Of a DNA stretch of 64,000 nt, positions 6,300 through 63,870 are shown one piece after another. A program made the position numbers and the translations under genes. A model generated the notes under the pieces. The model did no database searches and was not told where the DNA came from. It worked only from the letters and a program-made list of their open reading frames with translations. The DNA comes from Cyanophora paradoxa CCMP329. Its lineage: Eukaryota; Plantae; Glaucophyta. Positions within the stretch are counted from its first letter, which is position 1. Each line of letters starts with the position of its first letter. Location: positions 1-64,000 of the forward strand of contig QPMI01000416.1 of NCBI GenBank assembly GCA_004431415.1, given 5' to 3'.

Positions 6300-7183
6300 A
6301 TGGGGTATCGGGGGAGGAAGGGGGACTGGATGGAAGGGCGGGGAAGAGAGAGTTCTTCGCGGACCGCGTCCCACCAGGAGGGGGCATGTTTGTAGTATGC
6401 CGGGACACGACCATGACTCCAGAGGAGGGACCAATCAGCTAGTGAGCCTCGGAGGACGTAATGTCACGGATGGTGAGGAGGCCGCAGCGATAGAGGCGCT
6501 GGCCGGCTTGTTGGAGGGTGAGGGGCGTCAATTGTGATGATATAATGTATTCTCGTCGAAGGTGGGACCGTCGGGAGGGGAGGCCGTGCGTCCAGGAATC
6601 GCATGTTGTGAGGATGTGGTGGGAGGTGGAAGTCAAGTCTGCCGTGATGGCGAGCGTAATATTTTTCTGTAGTGTAAGGGGCCCCGAAGGAAGTTCGGTA
6701 TTCATGTGGGAGGAGGGAGCCGTACCGGGCCTGGGTGTCGAGGACGCGTTGTCGGTATATTTGGCCGTAGAGTGATGATGTGTGGGAGGCGAGTTCCTGG
6801 CGGAGGCGCTCGTCGACGCACTGCTGTTGGCGTTGGATGACTGCTATTGAGGGAAGGCGATAGATGGAGGAGAATGCAGCCGTGGAGACGGACTGGGCCA
6901 GGTTGGCAGTGTGTTTGGCCGCGGTGAGCCAAACAGCGTCGAGGGACTGGCATTGGGATGGCGTTAGGGTCATGATGCGGAGGGGGTATGACAGTTTAGG
7001 GAAGAGGACCCGGTGTAATATCACTTGGAATTCGTGAACGGTAATCTTTTTCGTGGCTAGGATCGAGATTGCAGATTGGAGCTGGGATTTGAGTAGGCGG
7101 ACTTGGTGGGTCCAAGACAGGTTCGCAGTAAACTGGACGCCGAGGACGCGGAAGGGCGTTGTGGGGAGAGGATGTGGCCAACC
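6300..7183 (-). pseudogene. RT thumb/downstream region of the LINE polyprotein
   Basis: Same frame as the RT ORF after a single TGA at 7184-7186: GWPHPLPTTPFRVLGVQFTANLSW...ILHRVLFPKLSYPL. A frameshift then leads into LYRCGLLTIRDITS. Confidence 0.8.
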
Positions 7184-11155: not shown

Positions 11156-11394
11156 GCCGTAGCGCGGTCTAGCGAACGTGGTCCAGGAGGTGCTCCAGAT
11201 GTAGACACGGCGACTGAGCTGCGAAAGTACTTGCGCGGCCTGCTGGATGCCGAGGCGAACAGCGCGGCGTGGAGCGGCAGCGACAGTAGCATCAGTACGG
11301 GGCCCGGGATTGACCTCTCGCTGCGGGCCTCCGGGAAACTTCTGCACATCGAGGTTTGCTCTACGGGTCGGACAGTCGGCTCGGGCACTGCGCT

Positions 11395-42928: not shown

Positions 42929-43669
42929 ATCAAATTCTAGGTCCAGCTAGAGCCGGGCCCGATTTCGTAATCGATATCGCAGTCGAAATCGCACATGTAC
43001 GTATATACATGCGATCAAACGTTAACTAGTAAAAGGTCGGCACGGAGCTATAGCTAGTTAACGTTATAAATAAGAGCGCTAGCCTCGCGGAATGGATGCC
43101 TCTATATATCTCATCTCCCATGATCATGAGCTCCTCTATATATAGCTAGATCTTTTGAGAGCTCGCTGAATTTGAATCCTCTAGCAAGCTCTAGCGCGAG
43201 GGGCCTACAGCTACAAATATGGGCAAGCTAAGGCCTACATATATATAGGGAAACTTCGAATTCACAAAATTGTTGTAAGATCGAGGAGAATATGCATGTT
43301 GACCGTTCGCGGTTGGGCCGAAATGCCCGACCCTTCGTGGTTGGGCCGAAATGCCCGACATCAAAACCGGGTTAAAGCTTAAGCTTGGGGCAGTCAACAG
43401 CGCCAACTTCGGATCGAAATTCACCCAGGTGCGCGACCGACGCGCCCAAGCGCTAGCGCCGCCGCCATCGCTTCGGGGCGCCTGAATTCGCGCGTGGCCG
43501 GTGCTCGCCCAGGCTCCGGATCCATTTCTCGCCGAAAGCTAGGTGCGAAGCCCTCGCTGCAAACTAAATTCCATCTTTCGTCGACGCCGCGCCCCCCGCG
43601 CGCCACGAACAGCGCGCGCATCGCCTCCTGACGTTCTTTCGCGCCTCGGCGCGCGCCGCAGCACGCGAA

Positions 43670-44066
43670 ATGTCGTCGAAGACCATCATCCTGCTCGTCG
43701 TTGCCGTCCTCGCGCTCCTGGGCCTCGCCCAAGTCGCCCAGGCCTTCCCGTGCACCTCCGCCAACGCCGTGCACTGCGACAACACTGACAACAAATGCTG
43801 CCGGCCGAGTGCGTACGACCTTTCGACGCGCAGCGCGCGCGCGAGATCGATCGATATCGTTATTAATATTGCGCTCGCATGCGCGCCTAGGCTTTAATTT
43901 CGCGCGTATGCGCATGCCCAGCTCGCGCGCGCTAACTTCATTTTTCGCAGATGAGAGCTGCTGCCAGGGCTTCGACAACTACGCGAACACGATCCTCTGC
44001 TGCAACGATGATACCGAGCAATGCAAGATTACTGGGAACGGGCGCCCCCGCTGTCAGTCACACTGA
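43670..44066 (+). CDS. Small secreted Cys-rich peptide, copy 1 (84 aa, 10 Cys)
   Basis: Signal peptide MSSKTIILLVVAVLALLGLAQVAQA. Phase-1 GT-AG intron 43809-43950 with a GCTAAC branch site. Mature region FPCTSANAVHCDNTDNKCCRPNESCCQGFDNYANTILCCNDDTEQCKITGNGRPRCQSH. Confidence 0.85.
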
Positions 44067-44734
44067 GTGATCATGATCAAGAGGGCCTTGAGCCCTGCTC
44101 TCTGACCGCCGTCCCGCGCGCGGCTGCGCTCGAGAGCTCGTCCAAATCCATCGCGCTCCCATCGCAATTGACGCCCCTTCGATAGGGATGTAAATACGTC
44201 GAGCTTCGTGATCACGTAGGGCGATTCCATTGCGAAATAACTATTAATACGATTTTTCACTGCTTTCGCACGTGCACCGCGGGCCATTTTCGTAAACGCG
44301 CGCTTGCGCAGAGGCACTCGCGCATGCATGGGCATCATTTGCACGGGCTGTTAACATTTGATTTGTGGGGAGGCAGCGCGAGGGCTCGAATTCGAATTAA
44401 TATTCAGCCTATCGATCGCAAGCTCTAGCTATATAGCTAGATCTAGAATTCTAAACGTCGGCGCCCGGCGCCGACATTAATTTGCATTTTCGCGTTGCAG
44501 AATTTTCGCATTAATTATATAATATTGCAGGAATTTGCAGCACATGCAGGCGCTTGTCGCTCTTTGCGTTCTTTAAATTTAAAGAACGCAAAGAGCGGCA
44601 AGCAATGCCATGCCATGATGATGAGGCGCGGCAAGTTAAACAATCATCGGATTCAACGGCCGCGGGCCACGCACGGAGCCTCGGAGTCAGCCTAGGGTCA
44701 AGCTCCATGAACTACGAACTCGCGAATGACGGCG

Positions 44735-44858
44735 CAGCCCATTTTTGCCGCAGGGTGCTTCAGGAGGCTACCGCGTGGAATTCGAAGGAGGGCGGCGGCG
44801 CGGCGCTCGCAGCGGGCTGCGGCCGCCGCCGATATGATCGAGGCGGGGGCGGAGAAGA
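44735..44858 (+). pseudogene. Degenerate duplicated fragment of the DAK last exon
   Basis: CTTCAGGAGGCTACCGCG..GAAGGAGGGCGGCGGCGCGGCGCTCGC..GGCCGCCGCCGA versus CTTCAGGATGCTATCGCGCGGAAGGAGGGCGGCGGCGCGGCGCTCGC..GGCCGCCGCCGA at 42671. Confidence 0.8.
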
Positions 44859-45264
44859 GTTAATTTTAGGGGAACTCTACAAAATTGTTTTAAGAGCTCG
44901 AGCTCGAGGGAAATATGCATGATGACCCTTCGTGGTTGGGCCGAAATGCCCGACATCAAAACCGGGTTGAAGCTTAAGCTTGGGGCACTCAACAGCGCCA
45001 ACTTCGGATCGAAATTCACCCAGGTGCGCGACCGAAGCGCCCAAGCGCTAGCGCCGCCGCCATCGCTTCGGGGCGCCTGAATTCGCGCGTGGCCGGTGCT
45101 CGCCCAGGCTCCGGATCCATTTCTCGCCGAAAGCTAGGTGCGAAGCCCTCGCTGCAAACTAAATTCCATCTTTCGTCGACGCCGCGCCCCCCGCGCGCCA
45201 CGAACAGCGCGCGCATCGCCTCCTGACGTTCTTTCGCGCCTCGGCGCGCGCCGCAGCACGCGAA

Positions 45265-45651
45265 ATGTCGTCGAAGACCATCATCCTGCTCGTCGTTGCC
45301 GTCCTCGCGCTCCTGGGCCTCGCCCAAGTCGCCCAGGCCTTCCCGTGCACCTCCGCCAACGCCGTGCACTGCGACGACACTGGAAGCAAATGCTGCCGGC
45401 CGAGTGCGTACGATTACGACCTTTCGACGCGCGGCGCGCGCGCGAGATCGATTGCGCTCGCATGCGCGCTTAGGCCTTATATTAATTTCTCGCGTACGCG
45501 CATGCCCAGCTCGCGCGTGCTAACTTCATTTTTCGCAGATGAGAGCTGCTGCCCGGGCTTCGACAACTACGCGAACACGATCCTCTGCTGCGGCCAGAAC
45601 GAGCAATGCAAGATTACTGGGAACGGGCGCCCCCGCTGTCAGTCACACTGA
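45265..45651 (+). CDS. Small secreted Cys-rich peptide, copy 2 (83 aa, 10 Cys)
   Basis: Same signal peptide; intron 45404-45538. Mature region FPCTSANAVHCDDTGSKCCRPNESCCPGFDNYANTILCCGQNEQCKITGNGRPRCQSH. Confidence 0.85.
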   Translation: MSSKTIILLVVAVLALLGLAQVAQAFPCTSANAVHCDDTGSKCCRPSAYDYDLSTRGARARSIALACALRPYINFSRTRMPSSRVLTSFFADESCCPGFDNYANTILCCGQNEQCKITGNGRPRCQSH

Positions 45652-47633
45652 GTGATCATACGAGGACCCAGGGCCTTGATCGCTGACCGCCGTCCCGCGC
45701 GCGGCCGCGCTCGCCCGAATCCATCGCGCTCCCATCGCAATTGACGCCCCTTCGATAGGGATGTAAATACGTCGAGCTTCTTGATCACCGTAGGGCGATT
45801 CCATTGCGAAATAATTATTCGATCTTTCACTGCTTTCGCACGTGCACCGCGGTCCATTTTCGTAAACGCGCGCTTGCGCAGAGGCACTCGCGCATGCATG
45901 GGCATCATTTGCACGGGCTTTTAACATTTGATTTGTGGGGAGGCAGCGCGAGGGCTCGAATTCGAATTAATATTCGGCCTATCGATCGCGAGCTCTAGAT
46001 CTAGGAAACGTCGGCATTCAACGGGCTAGCGCTGGCATTCGCATTTTCGCACCGCAGGATTTGCGCATTGCAGGAATTTGCGGCACAGCTGCAGCTGCAG
46101 GCGTTTTGTATCACACTGTGACAGCGCCGAGACAACGAGCTCTACTCGAGCCTAATTATAAGCTCTATCTCTAGATTTTGCTTTCAGCAGGTTTATATCT
46201 GGTCGATTTGGCTGGATAAAATAATGGAAAGCGATTGGCGAGAAACTGAAGCGTTTAATACTAGCTAGTATGCATCTTGATGCTACTAGGCTAGAATAAG
46301 GCTCAGTTTCGTGCGGATGCGGTACGAAATTTTCCTAGATGTATGGCCATACAAAAGCGACGAGGAAAAGGCCAGTTTCGCGGCAAGCTAGCCGAGCTAG
46401 CAGCGCGCCCGGCCGGCGTCTTATTGCCCCAGCGTTCGAGTCCCGGGAAGGGCAGTTGGGGGGAGCGGGGGGGCCTGGGCGGGCCTTGAGCTGCCTTCGG
46501 CTGAAGAGGGGGCCGGGGCGCAGCGACCCCCGAGGCCAACTTCTGCACGGCGAGACATTGGCGCGAAACCAAAACTTTCCCTGCTCTAGATTGCTCTAAA
46601 CTGCACTTCAGACGGGCTCAGTTTCGCGCCAATCGTTCGCTGTGCTCCGCTAGAATTTCGGCTGGACATGTATGGCGTTTGATTTAGCAGACCCACTGGG
46701 CCAGGCCCCGCATGCGCAGTATTCGAAAGATCAATTCTGTCGGGGGAGTGCTTTCATCTACCGCGTCGATTTTGCGCAGGTACCCGGTGTGACCGGTGCG
46801 ACGATGTGCGGGTGCGTGACGAGCCGCTGATCATGAGCAAGAAGTGCACATGCAAGCCCGCGGCCGCGAGAAGAAGAAGCGGAAACGACGCGGAAACGAT
46901 GTGCGGGGCCTGGGGGCGCAAGGGACGCCCGCGGCTGGGGGCGCCGCGGGCTTATAAATTACACATTTCGGAATTGAAACGCTGCGCGAACGAATTCGAA
47001 GACTGAGACTGCGGCTGCAAGTCCGACGGTCAAGTGGCGCGCGCGGCGCCGGCGATTTTGCAAGCAATTCAACCGCGCGGGTCCCGGATCCCCTACCGCA
47101 GTACGAGTACCACCGTGGTACAACATATCGAAATTTATCCGCGCACTTTCATGGCGCGCTGCAAGAGCTACAGCCTACAGCTGCATGCAGGCTGATGATG
47201 ATGCAGCTGCGGTTGCACCGCCGGCGCCTGATCTAAGCTTAAGTTGGAGAACACATACACGATCCAGATCTAGAATTATTCTTGAGCCTTACTGAGTCAG
47301 GCCTTCCGAGGGCTCATGGTCAGGCTCTGATGTCAGGAGAAGTTTTAATTAGAACCTCTGCCGCAGTGCTGCAGACTGCATGCATATGTATGCGACTGCA
47401 GCCTGGCAGATCAGAAATTCAGAATCGGTAATATTTTCAGTGCAGAATCACTGCAGATCTAGAATATAGATCAGCATGAAGGCAAAGCTCCGCGAACTCG
47501 CGAACCTCGGAAGAGTCGGAACAAGCAAGAGTTCCGAAGTTCAAGCTAGCGCTTCGCGAATTCGAACAAGCGTTATCTTCTCAAAAAAAGCGATCACCGG
47601 CCTAGCCGGCGGAGCTAGGCTAGCAGGCGAGCC

Positions 47634-47932
47634 CACACATAGACAATGCCCGCGTTTTATCCCTCGGCTAAGTTTAATTATAATTTGTTTATATTTTACC
47701 TATATTTCTTGCATATTTAACGTTAATTTATGTGTATTTTATCCTTTATTCTTGTCTTTTATGTGCGTATTTTATATATAATCCTAATCAAACCCTTACT
47801 GAAACTTAATTTAGTCGTATCTCCGATGTATTTTACCTCTATCTCTCGTAATCACTTGTATTTGAGGTGGATTTTAAACTTAGATAAATTATATCACGCC
47901 TCCTGATAAAACGCGGGCATTGTCTATGTGTG
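47634..47932. repeat. Terminal fold-back: perfect 28-bp inverted repeat enclosing an AT-rich core
   Basis: CACACATAGACAATGCCCGCGTTTTATC (47634-47661) / GATAAAACGCGGGCATTGTCTATGTGTG (47905-47932), with nested CTAAGTTTAA (47668) / TTAAACTTAG (47874). Confidence 0.9.
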
Positions 47933-48242
47933 ATATTACGCATTATCGTGTATAATGATATTGAAATAATATGTGTATGCATTATATGTAAAATATGTAT
48001 TAATGATCGTAATAAATATGTATAAAATATGTGTGAAATTCTAACGGAATTCCGTCGAAAAATAATAAAATGTTCTTTTGGATATAATGCGATGATGATA
48101 TGGAGCGTATATGGTGCCGCATTAGAACGTAAACAACTACAATGTGCTGTATGGAGCGCGGGACGTGTAATATAATAATGATAACATAGTATTCTTTATG
48201 ATAATTGATATATCTTATGTTATTATAATGGTATTTTCTATG

Positions 48243-49128
48243 TGTAACAGGTGTAACAGGTTTATCCCAAATTGGGCTACTAGGAGGGGGTCATGGATTC
48301 CCGAGTTTGGGGAGAACCTGTTACACCCGTTACAACGTAAACAACTACAATGTGCTGCATGGAACGCGGGATGTATAATACAACAAGGTTAATATATGAT
48401 ACTTGATGATACTTTATGATTATTTATGACTGATATTATGTTATTTTAATGGGTTCTTACTGATAATGGTTAGTGTTACAGGTGTTACAGGTTTATCCCA
48501 AAGTCCGCCCTAGGAGTGGGGTCTTGGTTCCCGAGTTTGGGCAAGACCTGTAACACCTGTAACAACGTAAACAATTATCGTGTGCTGCATGAAACATTTC
48601 GCGCGCATCGAGAGTATGTGATAGTGAATATTTTCGCACTGAAAACGATATGAAATTGATCGTTATAATACAAAAAGAATTACTAATGATATTACTATGA
48701 TATATTAAGACTGATATTTTGTTGTTTTTATAGGTTCTTACTGAAATAGGTCAGTGTTACAGGTGTTACAGGTTCATCCCAAACTCGGCTACTAGGAGGG
48801 GTGGGGGATAGGAAACTTTGGGATAGACCTGTAACACCTGTAACAACGTAAACAATTATCGTGTGCTGCATAAAACATTTCGCGCGCATCGAAAATATGT
48901 GATAGTGAATAGTTTCGCACTGAAAAACGATACGAAATTGATCGTTATAATACAAAAAATAATTACTACTGATATTATTATGATATACTAAGACTGATAT
49001 TTTGTTGTTTTAATAGGTTCTTACTGAATTAGGTCAGTGTTACAGGTGTTACAGGTTCATCCCAAACTTTGCCCTAGGAGGGGGTGGGGGATAGGAAACT
49101 TTGGGATAGACCTGTAACACCTGTAACA
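48243..49128. repeat. Four tandem ~90-bp iteron palindromes (family A), period 231-283 bp
   Basis: (TGTTACAGG)x2..CCCAAA-loop(CTAGGAG)-TTTGGG..(CCTGTAACA)x2 at 48243-48334, 48474-48564, 48755-48845 and 49038-49128. Confidence 0.95.
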
Positions 49129-49188
49129 CCTTACTGATTAGCACGTAAATGCATGAGTTTCGCATCGAGATCGTGCGGCTACACATAG

Positions 49189-49875
49189 AAACTACGCAAT
49201 TTACCGCAACTACTCAAAGAAACTACGCAATTTAATACCGGGAACTACTGAAAAGATACCAAAACTACGCAACTACGCAACTTTCAGAAAAAGTTTGAAA
49301 CTCGGGGCGGGAAAAATTTAGAAAAGTGAAAAACTTGCGTAGTTGCGTAGTTTTGGTTTCGTTTGCGTAGTTTTGGTTTCGAATTGCGTAGTTTTTCAGG
49401 GAAGTTGAGTAGTTTCAAGTAGTTTATATATTATAAAGTAGTTTCTTATTAATATCAATATGATTCTATGATATATACCATGATTTCTCTACTGAAAAGA
49501 GCGCCGGCATACTACAAGGAAGCTACGCGATAGTTTCGCACTGAAACACGACCGTTTTATAGGCTACGCAATAGTCTCGCACCTAAATGCATGCGGACTC
49601 CCGGTAGACTACGCAATTTAACGTAACTACGCATGAAAACTACGCAATCTGATCGCTTTTAATACCGAAAACTACACATTTAATACCAAAACTACGCAAC
49701 TACGCAACTTTCTGAAAAAGTTTAGAAGTTGGCGGGGAAAAAAATTAGAAAAGTGAAAAACTTGCGTAGTTGCGTAGTTTTGGTATTAATGGCGTAGTTT
49801 CCGGTATTAAGTTGCGTAGTTTAACATAGGTAGTTGAGTAGTTTAAAGTAGTTTTTATTAATTATAAAGTAGTTT
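49189..49875. repeat. Two tandem modules (~427-bp period) of converging AACTACGC / GCGTAGTT iterons (family B)
   Basis: Multiple AACTACGCAA copies, a purine-rich spacer, then multiple TTGCGTAGTT copies, at ~49189-49443 and ~49607-49875. Confidence 0.92.
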
Positions 49876-50275
49876 ATTATTTATCTTATTGTTATCAGTC
49901 TGAGACTCTATGAAAATCGATTGACCTTAGTGTGAAACAGTGCGCCCCGCCCACTATGCAAGATACATGCAAACTACATGCGAGTTCTATGAAAACAATA
50001 ACGATTTAGTCATGCATATATTTCGTATATATGTCCGAACCTCTGTGTGAGTGATCCCGCACAACTTTGCATTTTTTGTTTTTTTTTGTTTTTTTCGCAT
50101 ATCACGACATATACATATATACACCGGCGTCACCGACATATTCGGGGTCATCACATCACGGCGATCCCGAAAACATATAGCATGCCACAAAGTAGTTTTT
50201 TATGTGTTTTTCGATCGATCGACCAATCGCGGATGTGAACCGACTGTTTTATTTTATTTAATTTATCATTCATGG

Positions 50276-50361
50276 GTGACAGGGGGGATACCGGTTAAGG
50301 TGACAGAACGTGACAGGGGGGATACCGGTTAAGGTGACAGAACGTGACAGGGGGGATACCG
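50276..50361. repeat. 34-bp direct repeat x2.5 carrying GTGACAG iterons (family C)
   Basis: GTGACAGGGGGGATACCGGTTAAGGTGACAGAAC at 50276, 50310 and partial at 50344. Confidence 0.9.
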
Positions 50362-50514
50362 TAAAGGTGGCATTTTGTGGACATTTGTGGACAGCGGGGC
50401 TACCGGGTTTGTGGTCATTTTGTGGACAAATTGCGAACAAAAATTTGAATGCATATATATGTGTATATGACTGACCAGCCGCTGAGCGACTGACCGGCTT
50501 GCAAGTTGCAATTT

Positions 50515-50570
50515 CCCGAGTTCCGAGTCCCGAGTCCCGAGTCCCGAGTCCCGAGTCCCGAGTCCCGACT
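50515..50570. repeat. (CCCGAGT)x8 heptamer tandem repeat
   Basis: Eight 7-bp units, two with single substitutions. Confidence 0.9.
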
Positions 50571-50934
50571 CGATAACACCGGCGATCGCGACTTCGCGGA
50601 GACCCCCTTCCGTTTTCCCCGCATAACTTTGGACAGCGAGCCGATCTCGGCGCGCTCTCAATTGCTACGTGCTCGTAACTTGCTTCCGGGCATGTTGGTG
50701 CTAGTTTGACTAGCTTACGCAACCGTGGCGCGACGCGCAAGTTCGCCATCGGCACAAGTGCCCGAAAACCGAGGTGTCCCCTACGTCGTGCGCGCCGGCG
50801 CGCGTTCCCGTGAGGCTCCACTAGTCATACTTTGCATCCGCGCGCGTATAGAGTAGTTCTACACTACTACAAAGCGGCGCGGTCTGATTCGCAAAGCGCG
50901 CGATTTGGCGGCTACGAAAGCACCGCGGCGCCTA

Positions 50935-52368
50935 CTACTTGCGTGGTCTCAGAGTCGCTTTTCGATCGCCATTAGCTACCGGCGCTACCGTTGCTACTTT
51001 TCTACTACTTCTTAATGTAGCTTTGGTTTCCGGCGCTTTGTAGCTCTCAGTTTGATTAGAGAACGACTTATACCATCGTTGGCTATTCACTCCGCCGGAC
51101 AGCTTAGGCTCGGCGGCTGTTACTAGCCGCTGTAATTCTTTATTTACTCGTTTCTCTTTTTGCACGCGATCCTCTAATAGAGTGCCTTGCGGCACAGCCG
51201 CGGCGGCTTCTATGCCCTCTCTACGCAATTGCGCATCGACGCGCGCCTCGTCCTTTGCCGCCTCTAATGCATCTACTGTGGGCGCCATTAGGTAATCCAC
51301 AGCTTGGACAGGCAATAGCTCGTGGAAGGCAAAGCGACCCTCTACGCGATTGCCGTCCGGATCAGTTAGCATAAACTTATAGCCCTCGCGCGCGGCGACA
51401 GTATATACGATTCGGCTCCAATTGTTACCGCCCTTAGCGAATGGCGTCTTCTCGATGCGTAGCCTTACTGACATGCCCGGCTGAATCTGATCCAAATAAG
51501 CTATCGATTTCTTGAATTTCGCATCTTCTTTTTGAACTATAAGCTTATAGTGACTCTCGTTGGTCTCGGCAGGCATATAGCCGGTCGCAGAGTGCACCGT
51601 ATTATTATAGTTATATTCTAATTCGGGCAGGACATCTATAAATCGCGCCGTATTATTAGCGATGCAGTAGCTCGTGATCAGCCGCCGCATTTGCTTGTTA
51701 AATGCTTCTATGCGCCCTTGCGCGCGATGGTCGGCTGTGTCCGCAATCTGATGCTCTATAAACTGATTCTCGAAATATTTGCGCATAATATCATTGCGGA
51801 ATTCGCTTCCCGCATCGCTTTGAATCTTAAAAATTGGTCTCGGCACCTTATTTTGCAGCTGAATAAAGGCGGCTAAGGTCGATGCAGCCGACTTATCCCG
51901 CATTGGGATAATGAACCCGACCCGCAATGTGTTCTCCATAGCCGTGAGAAAAGCACTGTAATTATCGTTATACTTAGCATACGCCGGAAAGAATAGCAGA
52001 TCAATTACGTAGGTATCGAGAGGCTGTCGGATCGGTATAGCAGGGTCTCGTTTGCGGGATAGGTGCGGCGCATTAATCTGAACGACCTCTTGCCGGCTAT
52101 ACCACTCTTGCAATTTCTTATAATTCTCGTCCGGCAGCTCTTGCCGTAGCTTAGTGATCCCTTTGAAACCGGTTTGCGGACTGTAAAACTTTTTAGCTAT
52201 CCGAGATTCCTCCGGGACAGCAAGGGCTACGGGCACGTCGCGGGGCACCAAAGCCTTTAAATCAGACCGCTTTACTATGCGGCTCTCTTTATTCTCTTTC
52301 GGCACGGGGATCGGCAATGTGCTCCCATCTAAATCTTGCGATCGTCTTACTATTGGCGGTCTTGACAT
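50935..52368 (-). CDS. Polinton-type retroviral-like (rve, DDE) integrase
   Basis: YVIDLLF, IQSDAGSEF, AQGRIEAFNKQMR, YNNTVHSATGYMP, and C-terminal GMSVRL..FAKG..NWS..Y..GRFAFHELL. Start uncertain (52368 or 52377). Confidence 0.93.
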   Translation of the reverse strand: MSRPPIVRRSQDLDGSTLPIPVPKENKESRIVKRSDLKALVPRDVPVALAVPEESRIAKKFYSPQTGFKGITKLRQELPDENYKKLQEWYSRQEVVQINAPHLSRKRDPAIPIRQPLDTYVIDLLFFPAYAKYNDNYSAFLTAMENTLRVGFIIPMRDKSAASTLAAFIQLQNKVPRPIFKIQSDAGSEFRNDIMRKYFENQFIEHQIADTADHRAQGRIEAFNKQMRRLITSYCIANNTARFIDVLPELEYNYNNTVHSATGYMPAETNESHYKLIVQKEDAKFKKSIAYLDQIQPGMSVRLRIEKTPFAKGGNNWSRIVYTVAAREGYKFMLTDPDGNRVEGRFAFHELLPVQAVDYLMAPTVDALEAAKDEARVDAQLRREGIEAAAAVPQGTLLEDRVQKEKRVNKELQRLVTAAEPKLSGGVNSQRWYKSFSNQTESYKAPETKATLRSSRKVATVAPVANGDRKATLRPRK

Positions 52369-52422
52369 CCTTGTCATCAGACAATAAAAAAGATCAATGT
52401 AACATTGCAATCTATTAATTCA

Positions 52423-53284: not shown

Positions 53285-53449
53285 ATGGACGCCCCGGTAT
53301 GGGACGCGCACCCGATCCCTAATTACTTCCTAATCGACCCGGACGACCCAGGATTAAAGTGCATATGGCTTCTCCATATCCTAAGGCGACAGCTCCTTCA
53401 ATTAGAGCGCAAACCAAGAAAAAGAACGCACGATAAGATAGACGACTAA
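53285..53449 (+). CDS. Small hypothetical viral protein (54 aa, below the ORF-track cutoff)
   Basis: MDAPVWDAHPIPNYFLIDPDDPGLKCIWLLHILRRQLLQLERKPRKRTHDKIDD. Its TAA overlaps the convergent PolB TAG (CTAA at 53446-53449). Confidence 0.45.
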   Translation: MDAPVWDAHPIPNYFLIDPDDPGLKCIWLLHILRRQLLQLERKPRKRTHDKIDD

Positions 53450-56400
53450 CAGCCGAATGGAAGGCTATGTATGCCGTCGCCTGATATGCAGCGCTTGCTA
53501 TCGAATTGGGTCAGCGCTATCCGCTTGCTCTCCAAATCATATAAGTGGTGGCATCGCCGTTGCTTGTTTACTACTGTTACTGTTTTTGTGATCCCGTCAA
53601 ATAGGCAGCGCTTAAAGTCGTCGAAATGCACCTCTTTCGAGGCTGTCCCGCTCATTTTTACCTTGTCGTAGCTCTCGGTGCGGAAAGCATATAGCTTCGG
53701 TCGCAGCCCCACATACTCCACTATCTTGACGTCGGGCATCTCATTTTTATATTTACCGGGAACCATCCGGTTCTCGGGACTATAAGGGCAGTCTAAATAA
53801 GGGCTGATCGCTCGCATGCCCGCTTCCAGATCCGCGCTCTCTATATACAGACAGAACGAGTCGGTATCGTGGAACAGCAGCTGAGCTTGCGAGAAAGTCG
53901 GTCGGATCACGTCGTAAAAGAAGCTATAATTATGCAGCTTCGCGGCATCCAGCACATAAGCGCCAATCGCAACCGGTTTATCGAGTTTTACGTGTTTACT
54001 ATACATTTCGAATGCAACCGCAGTCTCGTTTAATACATTCGTCGCTTTTACCAGTGGGCTCGCCGCATATTTCTTAAACAGCTTCGTGCTGTTTGCAATC
54101 TTTACCACTGAGCGCCCGCGACACGATTCCAGGCATTTACCGTAAATAGCATTGTTCATTAATTTAAAGAAGTCGCTCTCGAATTTATTCCGGGCTTCCT
54201 TTCGCAGTTTCGTGTTCAGATCTATATAGGGCTTCATAAATGCGGCGGTTGCAAACGAGAGCACGCGGTGAATCTTAGTAACTACGATCCCCTTTTTTAC
54301 CATATAGAGCAGCATCGGCTGAGAGACCACGTAATTATATTTCGGAGTAAACGAGGCGATCAGCTTCGGATCTTTACTGAGCTTCTCGCCGCTAATCTCC
54401 AAAAGCCCACGCTGATATTTCCCGAGCATGTCCACAGTAATTACCTCTTTACTCACGATCAGCGGGAAATCGCGATGGTCGCCCTTTAAATAGTCCGGAT
54501 ATGCAAGGTCGACCTCTATAAATGCACTCCGCCCTACAACCTCGGTAAAAGCTGTGCTTGTGTCGTCCCAGCGATAGTCCCCGACCGGTAAAGGCTGACT
54601 GAGCGCATAGCCATATAGATTATTCGCATCCAATAGCACTATATGTTTATCCTCGCTATTCGCCTCGGCATATCGTGTGGGCATGGTCGCAAAGCCGCCC
54701 CTAATCGCCCGCTCAATAAATTCGTATTGATCCGCATCGCTGATCTGTTCTATCGCGACCCTCGTATGCTTTAACATCGCGTCCCACGATAGTCCCGGTG
54801 CGCTCACATAATGCGTGGGATCCAGTCCGTATTGCTCATGGGCGAGCATGCTGAATTTACCGAATTTTACCATGAGATCATTAACATCGGACGCCTGAAA
54901 ATCCATGAAATTCGAGGCGTCTATAAACTTGTAAAGTCCCCACTGTAAAGAGAGATACTCGTCGAAATTCTTACTTAGGATCTCGACCCGCAGCTTGTCG
55001 TCTTGCTGTGCGATTTTCCTGAATATAGCATGCCCGCACTCGTCCATCCGATCAATAACCACGGCTACTTTCGTTTGCTTTGAGATCCGCCTATGTAAAT
55101 TGCACTTTCGGCAAGCTTTCCCTATATAATCGCCGCTTTGGTGACAGTGATCGCGCACAGGGAAGTTTTCGTGGGTAAACCGCTGATTGCATATATAGCA
55201 GTGTTTGGTCAGCTTATAGGCTTGCTTTTGCGCCTCTGTGAGCGGGATCATAGGCGTGTTGGTAAATAGGGTATTAAGCATCTCGCGACACAGATCCCCT
55301 AACGTGGTAAACATCTGTCCCAGCGGATCCACGCCCTCGAATTCGTGATTTTCAACATGAGAGCCCATAACAACATTAAGTGCCACCGACTTTACCTCTC
55401 GCTTGGTTCGATTTGGTTCATTAGGAACCGGCACCGACTCCATTTCTACCTTGCAATAGCAGACCGTGGGCAGCCACACCATTTTCCTTAGGTGTTGCAG
55501 TCCGAAAGTAATAAAGCTTCCGGGTTCCGGGCATTTACCTTTACTGAGCCGCCAATCTATACAGCGATTAGAGTCGGTGTGGCTATCGAGTTTCTCCTGT
55601 GATCTAAACCGGGACAAGCAGGTTTCGCAGTAGAAAATGCGCCCGTCGTTTGCTTTATCAAAGGTGGTCTTTAAGAGGCGGCTCAGTGACATTATCGTAA
55701 TATAGTGACCCTGTCCGTTTGCGTCCTCGATCAGCAGCAGGTTTACCTTCGATTTACGACGCGGATTACTTGACATGTGCAGTGGGTAAAAGGTTTGGGT
55801 CGCATTGTCGGCGCCATATATATTAATTGACAGCTCGGGATTATTGTCCTCGAAACGATCTATTAATGCAGCATCGCAAGCCACCGGGAAAGTAATGCCT
55901 GAGAAGTCGAGTTCAGTCAACCACCGCCTATATTGGAACGGATCATTACGTTTGTGTCTGTTTATGTCGTTTCTGTGCAGCCATGCGAGGATAGCGTAAT
56001 TAAAACAGTCGTGACCATCGATATTCTTAATATTTACTGTGGCTCGCTTTAATCCAATCCATTCGGGGGTCTCAATGTAGCAACCGCCCATCGGCGCATA
56101 TGACAAAACGGCGACATGTAGCTTATCTAATTTACTGAGCCGGTAGCTGTCGACCTGTATCATCTGTTCATTCATTTGCTGAGCTACACCCACTAACTCA
56201 GTGAGAATATTGCGCGACCTTGTGATTACGAAATAATCGCTGTAAATGTGTTTGGTGATAAAAACGTTAGGATCACTCACTTTTACGTATCGGCAGATGA
56301 ATGTAAGGCGCACCTTAATAGCTTTAAGCTCGTCCAGCCTCTCTTTCAGCCGCCCAGGCAGATTTGCAGCGATGGTAGTGAGAAATTCCACCGGATCTAA

Positions 56401-56709
56401 GATTATCTGTTCATCCGCCTTATAGCTATACCAGGCGTATGCTTTATTCATTGCGAAACCGTCGTCCTCATCGGGTTCTATGACGGCTAAGCGCCTCCCT
56501 TCGGTATAGAAGCGCTCCACATTTTCCAGGCGATTGTAGAGCTCGTCGGCAATATTCGCAAGGTTAGCTAAGCGGGGTTTTCGATCTAAGATCGCCGCCC
56601 TCCGATCGTATTCGGCTTCGGTGATCTCCCCAGTGACTAAAAGACTACCTAACAAGCCTAATATTTCGTCCTTTTTCTCTTTTATAAGGCGATTAGTTTG
56701 GCGGGGCAT
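53446..56709 (-). CDS. Protein-primed family B DNA polymerase with C2H2 and endonuclease VII-like zinc modules; exonuclease degenerate
   Basis: LLDANNLYG (motif A), KLMNNAIYGK (B), FHDTDSF (C), GLRPKLY; CETC..H..C; CYIC..VRDHCHQSG..ACRKCN. Confidence 0.93.
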   Translation of the reverse strand: MPRQTNRLIKEKKDEILGLLGSLLVTGEITEAEYDRRAAILDRKPRLANLANIADELYNRLENVERFYTEGRRLAVIEPDEDDGFAMNKAYAWYSYKADEQIILDPVEFLTTIAANLPGRLKERLDELKAIKVRLTFICRYVKVSDPNVFITKHIYSDYFVITRSRNILTELVGVAQQMNEQMIQVDSYRLSKLDKLHVAVLSYAPMGGCYIETPEWIGLKRATVNIKNIDGHDCFNYAILAWLHRNDINRHKRNDPFQYRRWLTELDFSGITFPVACDAALIDRFEDNNPELSINIYGADNATQTFYPLHMSSNPRRKSKVNLLLIEDANGQGHYITIMSLSRLLKTTFDKANDGRIFYCETCLSRFRSQEKLDSHTDSNRCIDWRLSKGKCPEPGSFITFGLQHLRKMVWLPTVCYCKVEMESVPVPNEPNRTKREVKSVALNVVMGSHVENHEFEGVDPLGQMFTTLGDLCREMLNTLFTNTPMIPLTEAQKQAYKLTKHCYICNQRFTHENFPVRDHCHQSGDYIGKACRKCNLHRRISKQTKVAVVIDRMDECGHAIFRKIAQQDDKLRVEILSKNFDEYLSLQWGLYKFIDASNFMDFQASDVNDLMVKFGKFSMLAHEQYGLDPTHYVSAPGLSWDAMLKHTRVAIEQISDADQYEFIERAIRGGFATMPTRYAEANSEDKHIVLLDANNLYGYALSQPLPVGDYRWDDTSTAFTEVVGRSAFIEVDLAYPDYLKGDHRDFPLIVSKEVITVDMLGKYQRGLLEISGEKLSKDPKLIASFTPKYNYVVSQPMLLYMVKKGIVVTKIHRVLSFATAAFMKPYIDLNTKLRKEARNKFESDFFKLMNNAIYGKCLESCRGRSVVKIANSTKLFKKYAASPLVKATNVLNETAVAFEMYSKHVKLDKPVAIGAYVLDAAKLHNYSFFYDVIRPTFSQAQLLFHDTDSFCLYIESADLEAGMRAISPYLDCPYSPENRMVPGKYKNEMPDVKIVEYVGLRPKLYAFRTESYDKVKMSGTASKEVHFDDFKRCLFDGITKTVTVVNKQRRCHHLYDLESKRIALTQFDSKRCISGDGIHSLPFGC

Positions 56710-56731
56710 CTTTTACTCTAAGGGAACATTT

Positions 56732-56977
56732 TTATTTTGCGATTCCAGCGCGTTCAGTGAGCTTAGTGACGCTCCGGACTGTGAGCTTTACATTTTCGGG
56801 AAGTATAACGGTGAGCTCAATGTTATCAGCTTTAATAACATGGGCGCGGCGCTTCTGTTTCTTTGCATCCAAATGGTGCATTCGCCATAGCAATTCGGCT
56901 ATTGCATCTGTATCACCCGAATCAGCGAGTCGAATCAATTGATCGCGGGACATCACATTAACATCGTAGGTCTCCAT
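56732..56977 (-). CDS. Small hypothetical viral protein
   Basis: METYDVNVMSRDQLIRLADSGDTDAIAELLWR... fills the gap upstream of PolB; AAAATTGA lies 45 nt upstream. Confidence 0.65.
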   Translation of the reverse strand: METYDVNVMSRDQLIRLADSGDTDAIAELLWRMHHLDAKKQKRRAHVIKADNIELTVILPENVKLTVRSVTKLTERAGIAK

Positions 56978-57088: not shown

Positions 57089-57178
57089 TGTTACAGGTGT
57101 TACAGGTCTATCCCAAAGTCCGCCCTAGGAGGGGGTCTCGGTTCCCGAGTTTGGGATGAACCTGTAACACCTGTAACA
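57089..57178. repeat. Solo copy of the family A iteron palindrome, downstream of the primase-helicase gene
   Basis: TGTTACAGGTGTTACAGGTCTATCCCAAA...TTTGGGATGAACCTGTAACACCTGTAACA, with the same flanks (CTTACTGAAA..GGTCAG / ACGTAAACAA) as the terminal copies. Confidence 0.95.
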
Positions 57179-57251: not shown

Positions 57252-59597
57252 TTAGGCTTCGATATCATCATCTAGAAATTCGTTTTGGTGGTGCATCTTG
57301 GCTTTCATTCCGAAATAGCCGCGCATCAGTGCGCCTCTCTCCCGCTTGGGCTCGGATTTAACATTGAATATCTCGCGAACTCGCTTTCCAATTGTTGTGG
57401 GCTCCGCCTTATCATCGACCTGTCTATATTTCTTCACAATAGAGTCACTCGAAATAAAGTCATCGCGGCTTCCAGTCCTCTCATAGGTATTTTTGAGCCA
57501 TTCGCCGAGCTTATCATTTTCAGCGAAATACTCAGAGCCACAGTCGACAATCGATTGGGGTGGGTTTTGCATCAAAGTGGCAAGGTCTTGTTGGGCGAGC
57601 ATATCCAGGAAAATAGACATTTGCGCCATCTTATACTCATCATCATGCAATAGAGTCATCAGCTTGGTATCAGCTTTCTTTTCGCCCTCCTTGGGATTCG
57701 GCTTAAATACACACTTGAATGTGTAGTAAACCAGCCTTCGCAAAATAGCTTCGTCAGCCTTGCTGAGAGACAGGTTATCATTGGTGGACAGGAATATTTG
57801 ACACATGGGAATAAAGGTTACAGGATCCTTAAAGAGAGCGCGAACCTTCATCTCATTTCCACCTGTGATTTCCTTAATCTTACTGATTTGGAGCTTGTCA
57901 CCATCCTCCGCCTCATTACTGAACACAATGCGTTTGCCCAGAATTGCAGCAAGCTCGGGTGTGGCATCGGACGAGTTCTTCTTTGGCTTTGTCCAATAGC
58001 TCATGCTGATTGAGCCGAAATAATCGCCGAAAGTCTGTTTCACCATCTCTTGAATGCAGGATTTCCCATTCGCGCCCTTTCCAGACCAGAAATTGAACTT
58101 CTGAATATCTGTGCGACCTGTGAGAGCGAAAGCAAGCGACCCGAGAATATAATTGCGCTCCTCATACTCTTCGATTATATCTGTATAGATTGACTGAATT
58201 TTCGCTACTTTCTCACGGTCGACAGCCATATACTCGTAACCCACTGTCTTGCTCACCATATCAGTAGGCTTTCCCTTTCTGAATGTCTTGGTGTTAATAT
58301 CAAAGACCCCATTATCGAAACCAATGATATTAGTGACAGTATCGAGTTTTTCAAAGAATGTGGGATCGCTGAACATTACAATTAGATCAGTAATAAGAGA
58401 TGTGCGATAGGATGTTTGTTTGAGATTCTTGCCAATATTCACAGCGAGTTTAGCCTTTTCCTCTAAGCTTTGCCTATTCTCTTCGTCCCTCATCGCAGCT
58501 GTTCCCAGGCTATATGAGCGAGACAGAAACACAGGGCATACCTTGCAGCTGAGTGCAAGATAAATTCGTTTTCCAGTGTCATCCATCTCCCAGATTCCAT
58601 TATCCCTGTTAAACTCGAACCAGGTCTTATTTGAGTAGCGATAATCATCTTTGAGAACTACATGCGACACTTTCGCGACATCATAGTGTGCACCATTCGA
58701 TCCAATTGCCTTATCAATGAGAACTATCAGCTCAGTATCCTTTTCAGTTTTCGTCCTGACCTCAATAATTCGCTTCTTGCATCGAGAACTGTAACTCGAA
58801 ACAATGAATTTGTCCTTTGCATCGGGATCTGAAATTTTAATCACATACCAGCTATTGCTATCATGCGAATTGGTGCAGCAGGGGCAGACTCCGCCTTTGT
58901 TCTGAGCTGTGAAGTTGTAGCCATTTTCGGTTTGACTGATGATTGTTGGGAAATCGAACCCGAACTCAGTTAGTTTGTCTTTGAGAGCTGTAAGGAATTC
59001 ATTGCCATGTATCTTCGACTGATCAATGTCACGGATGAACGGCTTTTTGTAGTTCTCAATCATCCAGCTTTGGAATTCCGCAGATGGCTCAATTAACTCG
59101 CATTCAGCAGCCCATGGCTCCCTGATCCATGTCTTGTTTGGGCTTGGGCAGACATTAATTACCCCGGCAGTTCCAGTAGAGCAAACCGTTTTCAGATCGA
59201 TCTTATCATAGCCCCGGAAAGCTCCGGGTTTGTCAAACAGTTTCAGCTCATCGAACTTGGGAGGTCGAGCGAAGAACACATGATAACCCTTGCTTGTTTT
59301 CTCGATTGGAATAGCAGCTGTGAAATCGTTGGGGAAAAGCTCTTCGAACTTATTGAAATCCTCCTCCTGATCGAAATCAATACAGACGATGTTGCGAGCG
59401 AGAATTCCCCATGCAATATACCTGTTTTCCTTAACGGCGTCCTCGTATTTCTTCCAGTTCCAGGCTCCATTTTTATGGGGAAATTCAGGTTGTTTGGTTA
59501 CAGGATCGACCGGAATAAGGAGGTTTTGAGCCAGCTCATCGGTCGAACGAAGCCACTTAGTGAGTTTGGTGAGCATCGATTTACTTTTGGTGTCCAT
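57252..59597 (-). CDS. Primase-polymerase (AEP) + Zn finger + D5-like SF3 helicase with a C-terminal winged helix
   Basis: CIDFD and KTSKGYHVFF (primpol), CPCC..H..N..C, IGFDNGVFD (D5_N), Walker A GKGANGKS, Walker B FSNEAE, LSTND, AILRRL. Confidence 0.93.
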   Translation of the reverse strand: MDTKSKSMLTKLTKWLRSTDELAQNLLIPVDPVTKQPEFPHKNGAWNWKKYEDAVKENRYIAWGILARNIVCIDFDQEEDFNKFEELFPNDFTAAIPIEKTSKGYHVFFARPPKFDELKLFDKPGAFRGYDKIDLKTVCSTGTAGVINVCPSPNKTWIREPWAAECELIEPSAEFQSWMIENYKKPFIRDIDQSKIHGNEFLTALKDKLTEFGFDFPTIISQTENGYNFTAQNKGGVCPCCTNSHDSNSWYVIKISDPDAKDKFIVSSYSSRCKKRIIEVRTKTEKDTELIVLIDKAIGSNGAHYDVAKVSHVVLKDDYRYSNKTWFEFNRDNGIWEMDDTGKRIYLALSCKVCPVFLSRSYSLGTAAMRDEENRQSLEEKAKLAVNIGKNLKQTSYRTSLITDLIVMFSDPTFFEKLDTVTNIIGFDNGVFDINTKTFRKGKPTDMVSKTVGYEYMAVDREKVAKIQSIYTDIIEEYEERNYILGSLAFALTGRTDIQKFNFWSGKGANGKSCIQEMVKQTFGDYFGSISMSYWTKPKKNSSDATPELAAILGKRIVFSNEAEDGDKLQISKIKEITGGNEMKVRALFKDPVTFIPMCQIFLSTNDNLSLSKADEAILRRLVYYTFKCVFKPNPKEGEKKADTKLMTLLHDDEYKMAQMSIFLDMLAQQDLATLMQNPPQSIVDCGSEYFAENDKLGEWLKNTYERTGSRDDFISSDSIVKKYRQVDDKAEPTTIGKRVREIFNVKSEPKRERGALMRGYFGMKAKMHHQNEFLDDDIEA

Positions 59598-59776: not shown

Positions 59777-59998
59777 TCAATACTTGCGGGGTCGCCCGCG
59801 GTTTCCACTGTGAATGCCCTCTTCTTGCTTGCGACGGTAGTAATATTCTAGCGCCTTTTTCTTTTTTAATTCGCGATATTCGGGATCGTCGTTATAGCGC
59901 ATCCGCTGTTTATATATATCCCTGACACGCCAGCCCGCCTTATCGAGATCTACCGGGTTCCCGTTCTTATCATACACAGTCATAGCATGCGTCTCCAT
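59777..59998 (-). CDS. Small basic AT-hook DNA-binding protein
   Basis: RYNDDPEYRELKKKKALEYYYRRK...RGRPRKY. Shares a 25-bp upstream motif with ORF 52423-53034. Confidence 0.75.
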   Translation of the reverse strand: METHAMTVYDKNGNPVDLDKAGWRVRDIYKQRMRYNDDPEYRELKKKKALEYYYRRKQEEGIHSGNRGRPRKY

Positions 59999-61458: not shown

Positions 61459-62370
61459 TCAAAATTTACCCAATTTCTTTGCAAATTTTGGGCGGCGCTT
61501 TTCTTGGTATGCCAGCAATAGATTGGGGTCTTTAAGTAGGTCGGCTTCGATTATCCTTTTGGTGGATCGCTTTAAGGTTGCGACGTTTCCACTCACAGGT
61601 TTCGTAACATCGGTGGTTTGGGGTTGGTCACCATTTACCGCGCCCGACGTCGGTTTTACCGGCTGTTTACCAGCGGTCTTTATGTCGTCCGCCGCTTTTT
61701 TAAAGAAGCGCTTGAATTTATATTCGTCGGGCACCGGATCAGCCTTGCCAACAGAGAATTCCAGGCTATATTTCGCATTGTTTACCACGATCACCTGATA
61801 GCTGTGACTGTATTCGTTCATCACCTTCTCGAACCACCGCTTTTCGTATGGATTAAACTCGTCCTCAGCGCTCTCCATCTCTTTTCTATTGGGCAATGAG
61901 AACAGGAATATATATTCGGCGTTTACTCTGAGTGTCGGCGAGATCTTCGTGAGTTTCTGTGACAAAATCCAGACGCTCACAAACAGATGGCGTCCAGCCG
62001 TGAAAAGACGATTTAATATAGGCTCACCCTTTCCTGACATCGATAGACTCGGATTATCAATAAAATCGTCCAGCACAATTAACAGGTTACCGACTTTCTC
62101 ATTTTTCTTGATCCTCTCCTTGCGTTTCTCTATTATATTGTCGATCAGCTTATGGTCGAAATCCTCATACAGATACGATGTGACATTGTCGTATTGATGA
62201 TTCCAGATCGTGGAGGCGAAAATCATCACCGAATCTATCTTGTCCTCGTTGTGGTAAAGCAGGTATTTCAAAAACACTGACTTCCCAGTTGCAGTTTTGC
62301 CCACAAAAACGGCGCGATTCGGAAATTCCAGGCTTCCCGGGTCAAACTCACTCAGATCTTGTATATCCAT
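61459..62370 (-). CDS. A32-like (FtsK-HerA) genome packaging ATPase
   Basis: Walker A GKTATGKS, Walker B LIVLDD, AGRH, SQK..SPTLRVN. Start placed at MDIQDL (62370) from the upstream motif. Confidence 0.93.
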   Translation of the reverse strand: MDIQDLSEFDPGSLEFPNRAVFVGKTATGKSVFLKYLLYHNEDKIDSVMIFASTIWNHQYDNVTSYLYEDFDHKLIDNIIEKRKERIKKNEKVGNLLIVLDDFIDNPSLSMSGKGEPILNRLFTAGRHLFVSVWILSQKLTKISPTLRVNAEYIFLFSLPNRKEMESAEDEFNPYEKRWFEKVMNEYSHSYQVIVVNNAKYSLEFSVGKADPVPDEYKFKRFFKKAADDIKTAGKQPVKPTSGAVNGDQPQTTDVTKPVSGNVATLKRSTKRIIEADLLKDPNLLLAYQEKRRPKFAKKLGKF

Positions 62371-62421
62371 TTCCCTTATAAGAAACATATAAAAATTACG
62401 AAACGCGACAGCCCTCATTCC

Positions 62422-63870
62422 TCATGCCGATATTCTACTGAGACCGTTGGCATTCATTACAAGGATATTGTGGCAATAAGCCGAGATCTGAACACCGACC
62501 TTTGTCCAGGTGGCGAGGGGTGTGCCATTGGGTGTGAGGATTAGGAAGCTCGACGCTGATTGCGTTAGATCGACGTAGCCAGTCGCCTTCTCACCTTTGA
62601 GCGCCGCTTTACCATCGAGAGCAAAGCAGAAGCCAGTGTAAATGGGGCGCTTGTTGCTATCGATCCAGTTGGTCATCTTGAATTTATCGGCGAGCTCCAT
62701 AGCCGCGGATTGCAGCGGGACACCAGTGTTGGAATATAGGTAATTGTTGTTATTTAGAACTTGCATCACGACATTATCATCGAAGGCAAGGGTGCGGACA
62801 GTAGAGTGCCCTCCTTTATTATCGCCGAGTGTGTTTTCGTCGCGAACCTTGACAACAAGTGCGTAAACAAGTCCCGAAATTTGAGATAGTGACAGGCGGA
62901 GACCAGAGCCGAGAGCAAGACCGGTATAATCCGCAAACTGAATATCAGTGTAGGGGATGGCGATGCCAGAGGTCTTAACACGAGTAATGATTTCGCCCAT
63001 CGTTTCCTCATCGATGTTAACAGCATCCATAATGATACGAGGGGTCGTCATTTCCAGATTCGCAAGTGCAGGTGTAGGTGTGAGAGCCGCACTATCGAAA
63101 ATCGCAGTGGCATTAGGGTGAGCTAAGGTCTTAATATTTCCGAAAGCAGCCGCAACAGCAAGCGTCGTCTCGCCATCAGTAGAATTGGCAGCAGTAATTG
63201 CAGTCGTGTTATTCTGAGCGTAAACGCCAGGAACCGCCGCAGTTTCGAGCAGCGCAGGGGTTTGGAAATATACTTCGACCGCGATTTCGGATGGGAGCGC
63301 ACCGATGGGCACGCCAGCATCGAGGAAGCTCGGAATTCGCATGGTAAAAATGCCGCCAGCTTGGTTGCCGCCCTCTACCTTCGGTCCGAGATGCAGCCCA
63401 TGCTTGCGCTTCTTTTGATCGAATTCAGCCGGAGTGTTAGCCAGGAAAGCGTAATCTACCAGTCGCTCAGCGGGAATAATTTGCTCATACGACCCGTATT
63501 TAATGCTGACTCGCTGAACAAACGAGCCAGGAAGCCCGCGGACGAAACCAGTATTGAATAGATCAGCCGAGCAGTCAGCAGAGGTCTTGGCGATGGCAGT
63601 CAGCGCCTTCGCCGATGGAATGGTAACTTGGAGGCTAATACCATTGCACCAATTGTAGCGAGGGAGATAGAAGACCACACGAGTGGTAGCACCAGTAGAG
63701 GAGAACAGATTGCCGGGATCCGCAATTGGGAGCACCTCCACACGAGAAGGCTTGAATTGTTTGTCCACACCCACGATAAATCCGCGATCCAAAAGCATGC
63801 TCTTGTAATCCTCCGGGGTTTCGAGGACGGATTTGAGCGTGAGGCGGCTAAGCGAGGTCGTGGGATCCAT
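62422..63870 (-). CDS. Probable major capsid protein (double jelly-roll)
   Basis: 482 aa, rich in predicted beta strands (VVFYLP, ISLQVTIP, VQRVSIKYG, MRIPSF..GVPIGAL, IAVEVYF, LVVKVR), adjacent to the packaging ATPase. Fold inferred, not searched. Confidence 0.75.
   Translation of the reverse strand: MDPTTSLSRLTLKSVLETPEDYKSMLLDRGFIVGVDKQFKPSRVEVLPIADPGNLFSSTGATTRVVFYLPRYNWCNGISLQVTIPSAKALTAIAKTSADCSADLFNTGFVRGLPGSFVQRVSIKYGSYEQIIPAERLVDYAFLANTPAEFDQKKRKHGLHLGPKVEGGNQAGGIFTMRIPSFLDAGVPIGALPSEIAVEVYFQTPALLETAAVPGVYAQNNTTAITAANSTDGETTLAVAAAFGNIKTLAHPNATAIFDSAALTPTPALANLEMTTPRIIMDAVNIDEETMGEIITRVKTSGIAIPYTDIQFADYTGLALGSGLRLSLSQISGLVYALVVKVRDENTLGDNKGGHSTVRTLAFDDNVVMQVLNNNNYLYSNTGVPLQSAAMELADKFKMTNWIDSNKRPIYTGFCFALDGKAALKGEKATGYVDLTQSASSFLILTPNGTPLATWTKVGVQISAYCHNILVMNANGLSRISA

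Follow-up and report, generated by a model that had tools for sequence, protein, structure and literature searches.

An integrated virus of the Polinton type carries, directly behind its primase-helicase gene, a ~90-bp module of converging repeats that is very probably the binding site of this helicase, judged from sequence, structural models and analogy to known replicons. Four more modules of this family (A) form an array near the left end of the element, together with two of a second family (B), which by its repeat pattern is probably an origin-type site for another initiator. To our explanation as a whole, in which A is the iteron origin of the resident helicase and the array a bank that holds four A and two B origins in reserve, we give about even chances.

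The window, by which we mean the whole 64,000-nt stretch of DNA that was analysed, passes from host to element at ~47,633, where DNA of 54-79% GC per kb gives way to gene-dense DNA of 35-52% GC. In all three DNA runs (one species label), the single-copy host contig stops at 47662 and the element contigs are ~19-24x deeper than the single-copy host flank. Based on this contig end, this depth and the gene set, the element is a multi-copy integrated Polinton-type virus. Its left end lies inside the window and its right end beyond it. The features outside the repeat array are as follows (strand given where one applies):

47634..47932: left end of the multi-copy element, 299 bp bounded by a perfect 28-bp inverted repeat
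50935..52377, minus strand: likely retrovirus-type (rve) integrase, 480 aa (Pfam rve, E=0.014)
53446..56709, minus strand: protein-primed family B DNA polymerase (pPolB), 1087 aa (PF03175, E=9e-12)
56732..56977, minus strand: 81-aa ORF without family match, with the depth of the helicase cassette
57252..59597, minus strand: Prim-Pol / D5_N / SF3 helicase, 781 aa (Pfam, catalytic motifs)
59777..59998, minus strand: 73-aa basic/acidic ORF directly upstream of the helicase
61459..62418, minus strand: A32-type packaging ATPase (PF04665, E=6e-10)
62422..63870, minus strand: likely double-jelly-roll major capsid protein (ESM Atlas, 0.98 to Capsid_N/Capsid_NCLDV clusters)

The combination by which Polintons/Mavericks are recognised was found, i.e. 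a protein-primed PolB together with an A32 ATPase and a jelly-roll capsid protein. Homologs of the polymerase numbered 3131 among 7992 candidates scored. The rve match of the integrase (16 bits) lies below the curated Pfam cut-off of 32.6, and the capsid candidate gave no match in Pfam, PHROG or a sequence-homolog search. In the helicase, Pfam recognised Prim-Pol (E=5e-4, just under the cut-off), D5_N and DUF5906, and the catalytic motifs DxD, H, D, Walker A/B, motif C and RR are present. Exactly at the left end of the element, the two 28-bp arms (47634-47661 and 47905-47932) enclose 243 bp of AT-rich DNA. No target-site duplication of more than 2 nt was found around this unit, which by depth is perhaps in only 7-12 of the ~20 element copies. 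On the host side, a repeat at 46092-46755, beside the insertion site, reaches ~1000x the flank depth. At 43300-46000, the host DNA contains the tandem duplicate of an intron-containing gene, the small product of which is rich in cysteine and likely has a signal peptide. Further away, the host part holds a tandem array of a 126-bp unit in 22 copies (11438-14218) and 12 kb with a strong G-over-C skew of up to 0.46 (1-12000).

The original prediction had placed four A palindromes, two B modules and a set of family C repeats in one shared converging layout within 48243..50570. A converging-repeat detector (k=7) applied to 47601-50600 returned five modules (A2-A4, B1 and B2), whereas 200 dinucleotide shuffles gave 0.005 on average and never more than one. 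A1 was picked up at k=6 and is not in the k=7 set. All four A palindromes and both B modules are present, far above shuffles. The modules and neighbouring repeats, together with the copy behind the helicase gene (A5), with which the arms and spacers of A2-A4 are compared, are:

48122..48209: remnant of an A unit that has lost its palindrome and retains the right flank alone (82% to that of A1; repeat family D7)
48243..48334: module A1, all four repeats with an exchanged base at the centre of the 7-bp core
48474..48564: module A2, arms as in A5, spacer 83%
48755..48845: module A3, arms as in A5, spacer 56%
49038..49128: module A4, arms as in A5, spacer 67%
49190..49443: module B1, 6 left and 7 right ACTAC/GTAGT half-sites, inner pairs with an 8-bp period, 58-bp AT-rich centre
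49607..49874: module B2, 6 left and 8 right half-sites, 85% identity to B1 over 143 nt
50276..50428, plus strand: family C, 34-bp direct tandem, then variant direct repeats; at most a half-module
50514..50568, plus strand: 7-bp tandem, 7.9 copies
57089..57178: module A5, likely cognate origin, ends 73 nt behind the helicase stop codon

Modules of both families have a core of ~90 bp. Family A is built of two 9-bp repeats per arm, with the arms 55-56 bp apart and an inner 8-bp inverted repeat, and family B of 6 left and 7-8 right half-sites, with the inner pairs 58 bp apart. The tandem of family C comprises 2.8 copies of its 34-bp unit (50276-50369), and no reverse-complement partner of the family C repeats was found within 47000-51000. 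Since family C is one-sided, the shared converging layout is limited to A and B. The AT-rich spacers that had also been described lie between the A modules (27-31% GC) but not inside them, where GC is 50-57% with flanks of 29-31%; the centres of the B modules have 29-33%. The word of the 7-bp tandem at 50514-50568 occurs once each in the spacers of A1, A2 and A5 (48299, 48529 and 57143), and this tandem might consist of multiple sites for a second factor. Rfam gave no family at threshold; weak plant miRNA matches, far below the gathering scores, reflect the hairpin shape only. Comparison of the array DNA with named phages gave no match.

The A copies represent tandem duplications of 208-283-bp units with their flanks, and the B copies those of ~427-bp units. 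Because the flanks were duplicated along with the modules, independent insertion of the A and B copies was ruled out. The shared flanks likewise argue against MITEs inserted into the virus, an explanation that short palindromic units in many copies might suggest and that the original prediction had itself raised in the form of host-wide MITEs. No target-site duplication of more than 3 nt was found at any of the eight units, chance matches reaching 2-3 nt at most, and the 47.6 kb of host DNA in the window contains no A and no B module. We therefore consider a MITE origin extremely improbable.

The most informative copy, A5, lies outside the range that had been described. It has at least two repeats per side in opposite directions and sits immediately downstream of the helicase gene; no prokaryotic terminator was found at this position. 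Compared to the array copies A2-A4, its arms are 100% identical, its spacer is 56-83% identical and its flanks are held in common. Therefore, the A units of the array, which is located 7-9 kb away, and A5 are homologous. The array itself spans 0.6-2.9 kb from the left end of the element. Modules at such a place might be sub-terminal sites for end processing by the integrase, the terminal protein of pPolB or packaging; Polinton terminal repeats have been proposed to function in integration and replication (PMC11296320, available text), and some of the phage A-type modules described below are located upstream of packaging-like genes. But an identical module is found inside the element, behind the helicase gene and at the depth of the helicase cassette. 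This placement also argues against a regulatory site for host RFX-type factors, as does the distance of 55 bp between the A half-sites, unlike the close palindrome of the X-box. We regard end processing or host regulation as improbable.

Origins placed like A5 have been described for other replicons. In SaPIs, the origin directly follows rep and is formed by oppositely oriented iterons that a C-terminal winged helix recognises (PMC9371898), and the origin of SCCmec Cch2 likewise lies directly behind the gene (PMC7581432). As far as the available parts of both texts go, SaPI/PICI Rep-ori (PriRep5) and SCCmec Cch2 share with our element an SF3-type primase-helicase with a C-terminal winged helix (predicted in our case) and two or more short opposite repeats per side immediately downstream of the gene. 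In contrast to SaPI/PICI, we are dealing with a eukaryotic integrated virus with pPolB and an integrase, with a GC-balanced A centre, and with additional A copies and a second type of module at a distance of 7-9 kb. The plasmid pRN1 has a ~100-bp stem-loop 54 bp after the gene for a Prim-Pol/SF3/winged-helix protein (ORF904), which is functional when moved (PMC4234260). The domain order Prim-Pol, SF3, winged helix is the same in our helicase, and the palindromes are alike in size (~90-100 bp) and in their distance from the gene (54 bp in pRN1, 73 bp here), whereas the available description of pRN1 has one origin, a stem-loop without iterons (PMC4234260). Three of the four testable features of SaPI, P4 and pRN1 are present here, namely a catalytic primase with SF3 domain, a predicted winged helix and downstream converging repeats. 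The fourth, an AT-rich centre as in SaPI-type origins, is absent in A and present only in B, which speaks against the origin reading of A, as does the element's own pPolB, which needs no internal origin.

RFX-type winged helices bind GTTRC/GYAAC half-sites, and P4 uses direct plus inverted iterons. The C-terminal 95 residues of the helicase were predicted to contain a winged helix (pLDDT 82.5; ~residues 696-766, 57300-57512) that folds like the DNA-binding domains of RFX proteins (1DP7, 8ZJR) and the origin-binding domain of the P4 alpha protein (1KA8). Among 48,161 chains, the top three structural matches of this model were RFX5 (Z 10.7, rmsd 2.4, 77 aligned), RFX1 on its X-box (Z 9.8, rmsd 2.0, 70 aligned) and the P4 origin-binding domain (Z 6.5, rmsd 2.4, 72 aligned). 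P4 differs, in the source text available, by a Toprim primase in place of the Prim-Pol found here. The winged-helix fold alone proves nothing, since a winged-helix region is likewise found at the C-terminus of giant-virus D5 proteins, which lack a module. In the alignment, the wing is long and basic in helicases with a downstream module and mostly shorter in core giant-virus D5 proteins.

We searched IMG/VR for the same layouts. The A-type pattern was found in 92 stretches, 80 of them with flanks. In 44 of these 80, the module is located at the 3' end of, or within, a primase/helicase gene of the D5, VapE, DUF927 or Toprim-AAA_25 type. Clustering at 50% identity places these 44 loci in 14 groups, one with 22 members. 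Among the remaining loci, one is just upstream of a primase/helicase gene, five are collagen-like coding repeats and 30 are elsewhere. The 35 loci not at a helicase gene, many of them by eye just upstream of packaging-like genes, count against A as a helicase site. Four-module loci initially considered as origins (L333, L341, L356, L357) were rejected as collagen-like coding repeats. Stand-alone A-type modules away from helicase genes (L291, L297, L299, L307, L327, L338, L353 and others) lie, by eye, just upstream of seeming terminase small-subunit genes. A pattern with only one A arm yielded 122 loci, none with a helicase match by tblastn. The B-type pattern occurs in 15 stretches, and in ten it follows a long gene at a distance of 25-194 nt. 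Of these ten genes, eight have a primase/helicase family match, one is a DUF3987 gene and one (L423), judged by its termini alone, nearly matches one of the eight proteins. Three other stretches are cut by contig ends and two are away from such a gene. The assignment of B as an origin-type module in the original prediction is supported by this placement behind primase/helicase genes.

Converging repeats with many different words also occur at phage D5 loci. At k=6, a module was detected in 10 of 31 loci selected via the protein and in 5 of 10 loci of named phages. In Lactobacillus phage A2 (AJ251789), such repeats form the annotated rep_origin directly after a D5-type primase, and in another phage (L346:5750-6203) four tandem A-type modules directly follow an AEP-D5 gene. 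These phage loci resemble our element in the converging repeats after the gene but have one repeat type per locus, always beside the gene. Repeats similar to family C follow D5 genes in L400 and L402/L403, among the loci fetched. A second Polinton-like virus (PLV), L175/L283, identified by its A32 ATPase, GIY-YIG and AEP-D5 genes, carries a module of its own with a 9-bp period, different from A, 17 nt after the D5 gene, so that our PLV sample consists of two elements. In both, a small charged ORF with a similar short repeat (likeness by eye) lies directly upstream of the helicase (59777-59998 and L175:50-334). This ORF is possibly a regulator, the L175 copy having a weak PHROG match. As a negative control, we used 160 helicase loci from alignment-based searches, mostly giant-virus core D5. 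Within 300 nt of the gene, the other 159 loci gave one detector match, no true module: L277 was rejected as a simple tandem repeat. The L175 helicase as query matched only itself, a single-protein locus search in viral contigs gave no match, and a scan of prokaryote genomes gave one truncated locus. Its occurrence at phage loci and in L175, and its absence at giant-virus core D5 genes, suggest that the converging-repeat layout marks an origin type of small mobile replicons, with candidates in at least two eukaryotic PLVs.

The position of A5, the predicted RFX/P4-type winged helix and the A-type modules at phage helicase ends make A the likely origin of this helicase, in agreement with the earlier assignment of family A to the resident enzyme. 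The wing of the helicase resembles those of A-linked phage helicases. It contains the motif G-x3-R-[GC]-hydrophobic, which was found in 9 of 12 A-linked proteins, in 3 of 27 linked to other repeats (1 of 9 B-linked, 2 of 18 others) and in 1 of 114 distinct C-termini of the control loci; the motif was defined after the A-linked proteins had been seen, and the counts ignore kinship. Counter-examples are L425, with the motif but another repeat, and L429 and L430, with GTTAC repeats but without the motif. This distribution favours A rather than B as the module cognate to the resident helicase.

Barth et al. 2024 proposed inverted repeats as origins for PLV primase-helicases, mobile PLV helicases with variant alleles, an 'end module' and a replicon-turnover model (PMC11296320). 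In Gezel-14T, a direct repeat of >300 bp occurs in the terminal repeat and just downstream of the replication module (PMC11296320). The available text of that study differs from our description in that it contains no iterons, winged-helix link or mixed-origin array.

Relative to the single-copy flank, the depth in the three runs is 4.0-4.8 for the helicase and 19-24 for the pPolB and capsid region, suggesting ~20 element copies, only 4-5 of them with the resident helicase cassette; depth is only a rough guide and not a copy number, and the contigs are short and the copies unphased. The low-depth stretch (4-5x) extends from ~56,740 through A5 and the helicase, and sister copies depart from the window sequence at 56713-56739, at the start of pPolB (run X1; among the 6 of 17 loose ends listed). 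A second helicase allele (run X1; among the 8 of 51 pieces listed) is 83% identical in the aligned part, residues 676-735; of its 30 differences in 178 nt, 20 are listed, 12 of them at third codon positions. Beyond residue 735, where the predicted recognition helix begins, this allele no longer aligns. According to their joints (15 of 18 listed), other copies have arrays that lack A1, A3-A4 or one B unit or carry other inserts, and array variants are present in all three DNA runs. Taken together, the depth step, the divergence at 56,713-56,739, the second allele and the joints indicate that the array is polymorphic among copies and that the helicase and its candidate origin likely behave as an exchangeable cassette. 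There is indirect support for other helicase cassettes in sister copies. A helicase of this organism with a B module behind it was not found among the short contigs from the DNA runs. At the joint 48615-49143 (X1, X2, X6), other copies hold a repeat with a ~12-bp period in place of A3-A4, a possible further module type.

Across A2-A5, the arms are 100% identical while the spacers share 53-83%, and the inner repeats are identical between B1 and B2. The compensatory change that had been reported for A1 exists as a symmetric change in all four repeats (two pairs altered on both sides), but one right-arm repeat has an uncompensated mismatch. This covariation was equalled in 15 of 500 shuffles (five sequences compared). 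As the 7-bp core is nearly palindromic, the A1 change amounts to a flip of each core. Intact arms around drifting spacers suggest, at the sequence level, that the array copies are still read. This favours a shared origin bank, a function to which we give slightly less than even chances; arm conservation and the A1 change could also stem from templated copying between arms.

Copying of this kind belongs to a competing explanation in which A5 is the real origin and the array a functionless by-product of tandem slippage: origins left by present or past cassettes would have been multiplied by unequal recombination, their symmetry being kept by hairpin-templated repair. It would account for the varying array length, with joints that skip A1, A3-A4 or a B unit, for the truncated A unit and the one-sided family C, and for the exchange of a 2-bp patch beside the arm between left and right arms in A3/A4 versus A5, which suggests arm-to-arm copying. 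The four tandem same-type modules behind the D5 gene of L346 are a parallel. The invariant arms of A2-A5 next to strongly diverged spacers and flanks, the identical inner repeats of B1 and B2 and the recurrence of array variants in all three runs make such a relic unlikely.

Cloned phage origins act by titration in phage-encoded resistance. By analogy, the modules could be decoys that bind and titrate the primase-helicases of competing sister elements or an invading virus without firing, a possibility to which we assign somewhat lower odds than to a relic. Several copies with two specificities, far from any initiator gene, would suit a decoy; ~20 element copies would supply many sites per genome, and phages have the stand-alone A-type modules mentioned above. 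However, spacer length and inner repeat are preserved along with the rest of the module in the array copies, which is beyond the needs of titration, the pRN1 origin is functional after relocation, and the element would titrate its own helicase.

For the shared origin bank, we propose the following mechanism. Two hexamers would load on the two arms of a module via the winged helix, unwind the DNA and then prime, as can be deduced from SaPI, P4 and pRN1. B would be read by a different helicase cassette of the same family, and the array copies would fire as origins. The bank would thereby let any copy replicate with whichever helicase variant a sister element expresses. Our joint reading, which is tentative and somewhat less probable than the bank itself, is that an integrated virus family swaps primase-helicase cassettes, each with its own iteron origin, while a bank of the family's origins that expands and contracts is retained at the end of each member. 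A single helicase, if expressed, might then replicate all copies or be captured by them. More widely, D5-type helicases of PLVs would use iteron origins of the phage-satellite type, the sequence of which follows the winged helix.

The replication of most Polinton-like viruses has been called unknown (10.64898/2026.07.28.741278, available text). A literature search, mostly of freely available main texts, gave no description of iterons in these viruses. Rep-origin modules of the SaPI/P4/pRN1 type are already known; here, a candidate module of this kind appears in a eukaryotic integrated virus with an array of differing candidate origin types. In two unrelated PLVs, the candidate origin is narrowed to 90 bp and a domain of ~80 residues predicted to read it, which makes the question of PLV replication accessible to gel-shift and plasmid assays. 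Should the array be a shared bank, it would represent a satellite-like multi-initiator strategy within the genome of a eukaryote and would give the replicon-turnover model of PLV evolution a concrete example.
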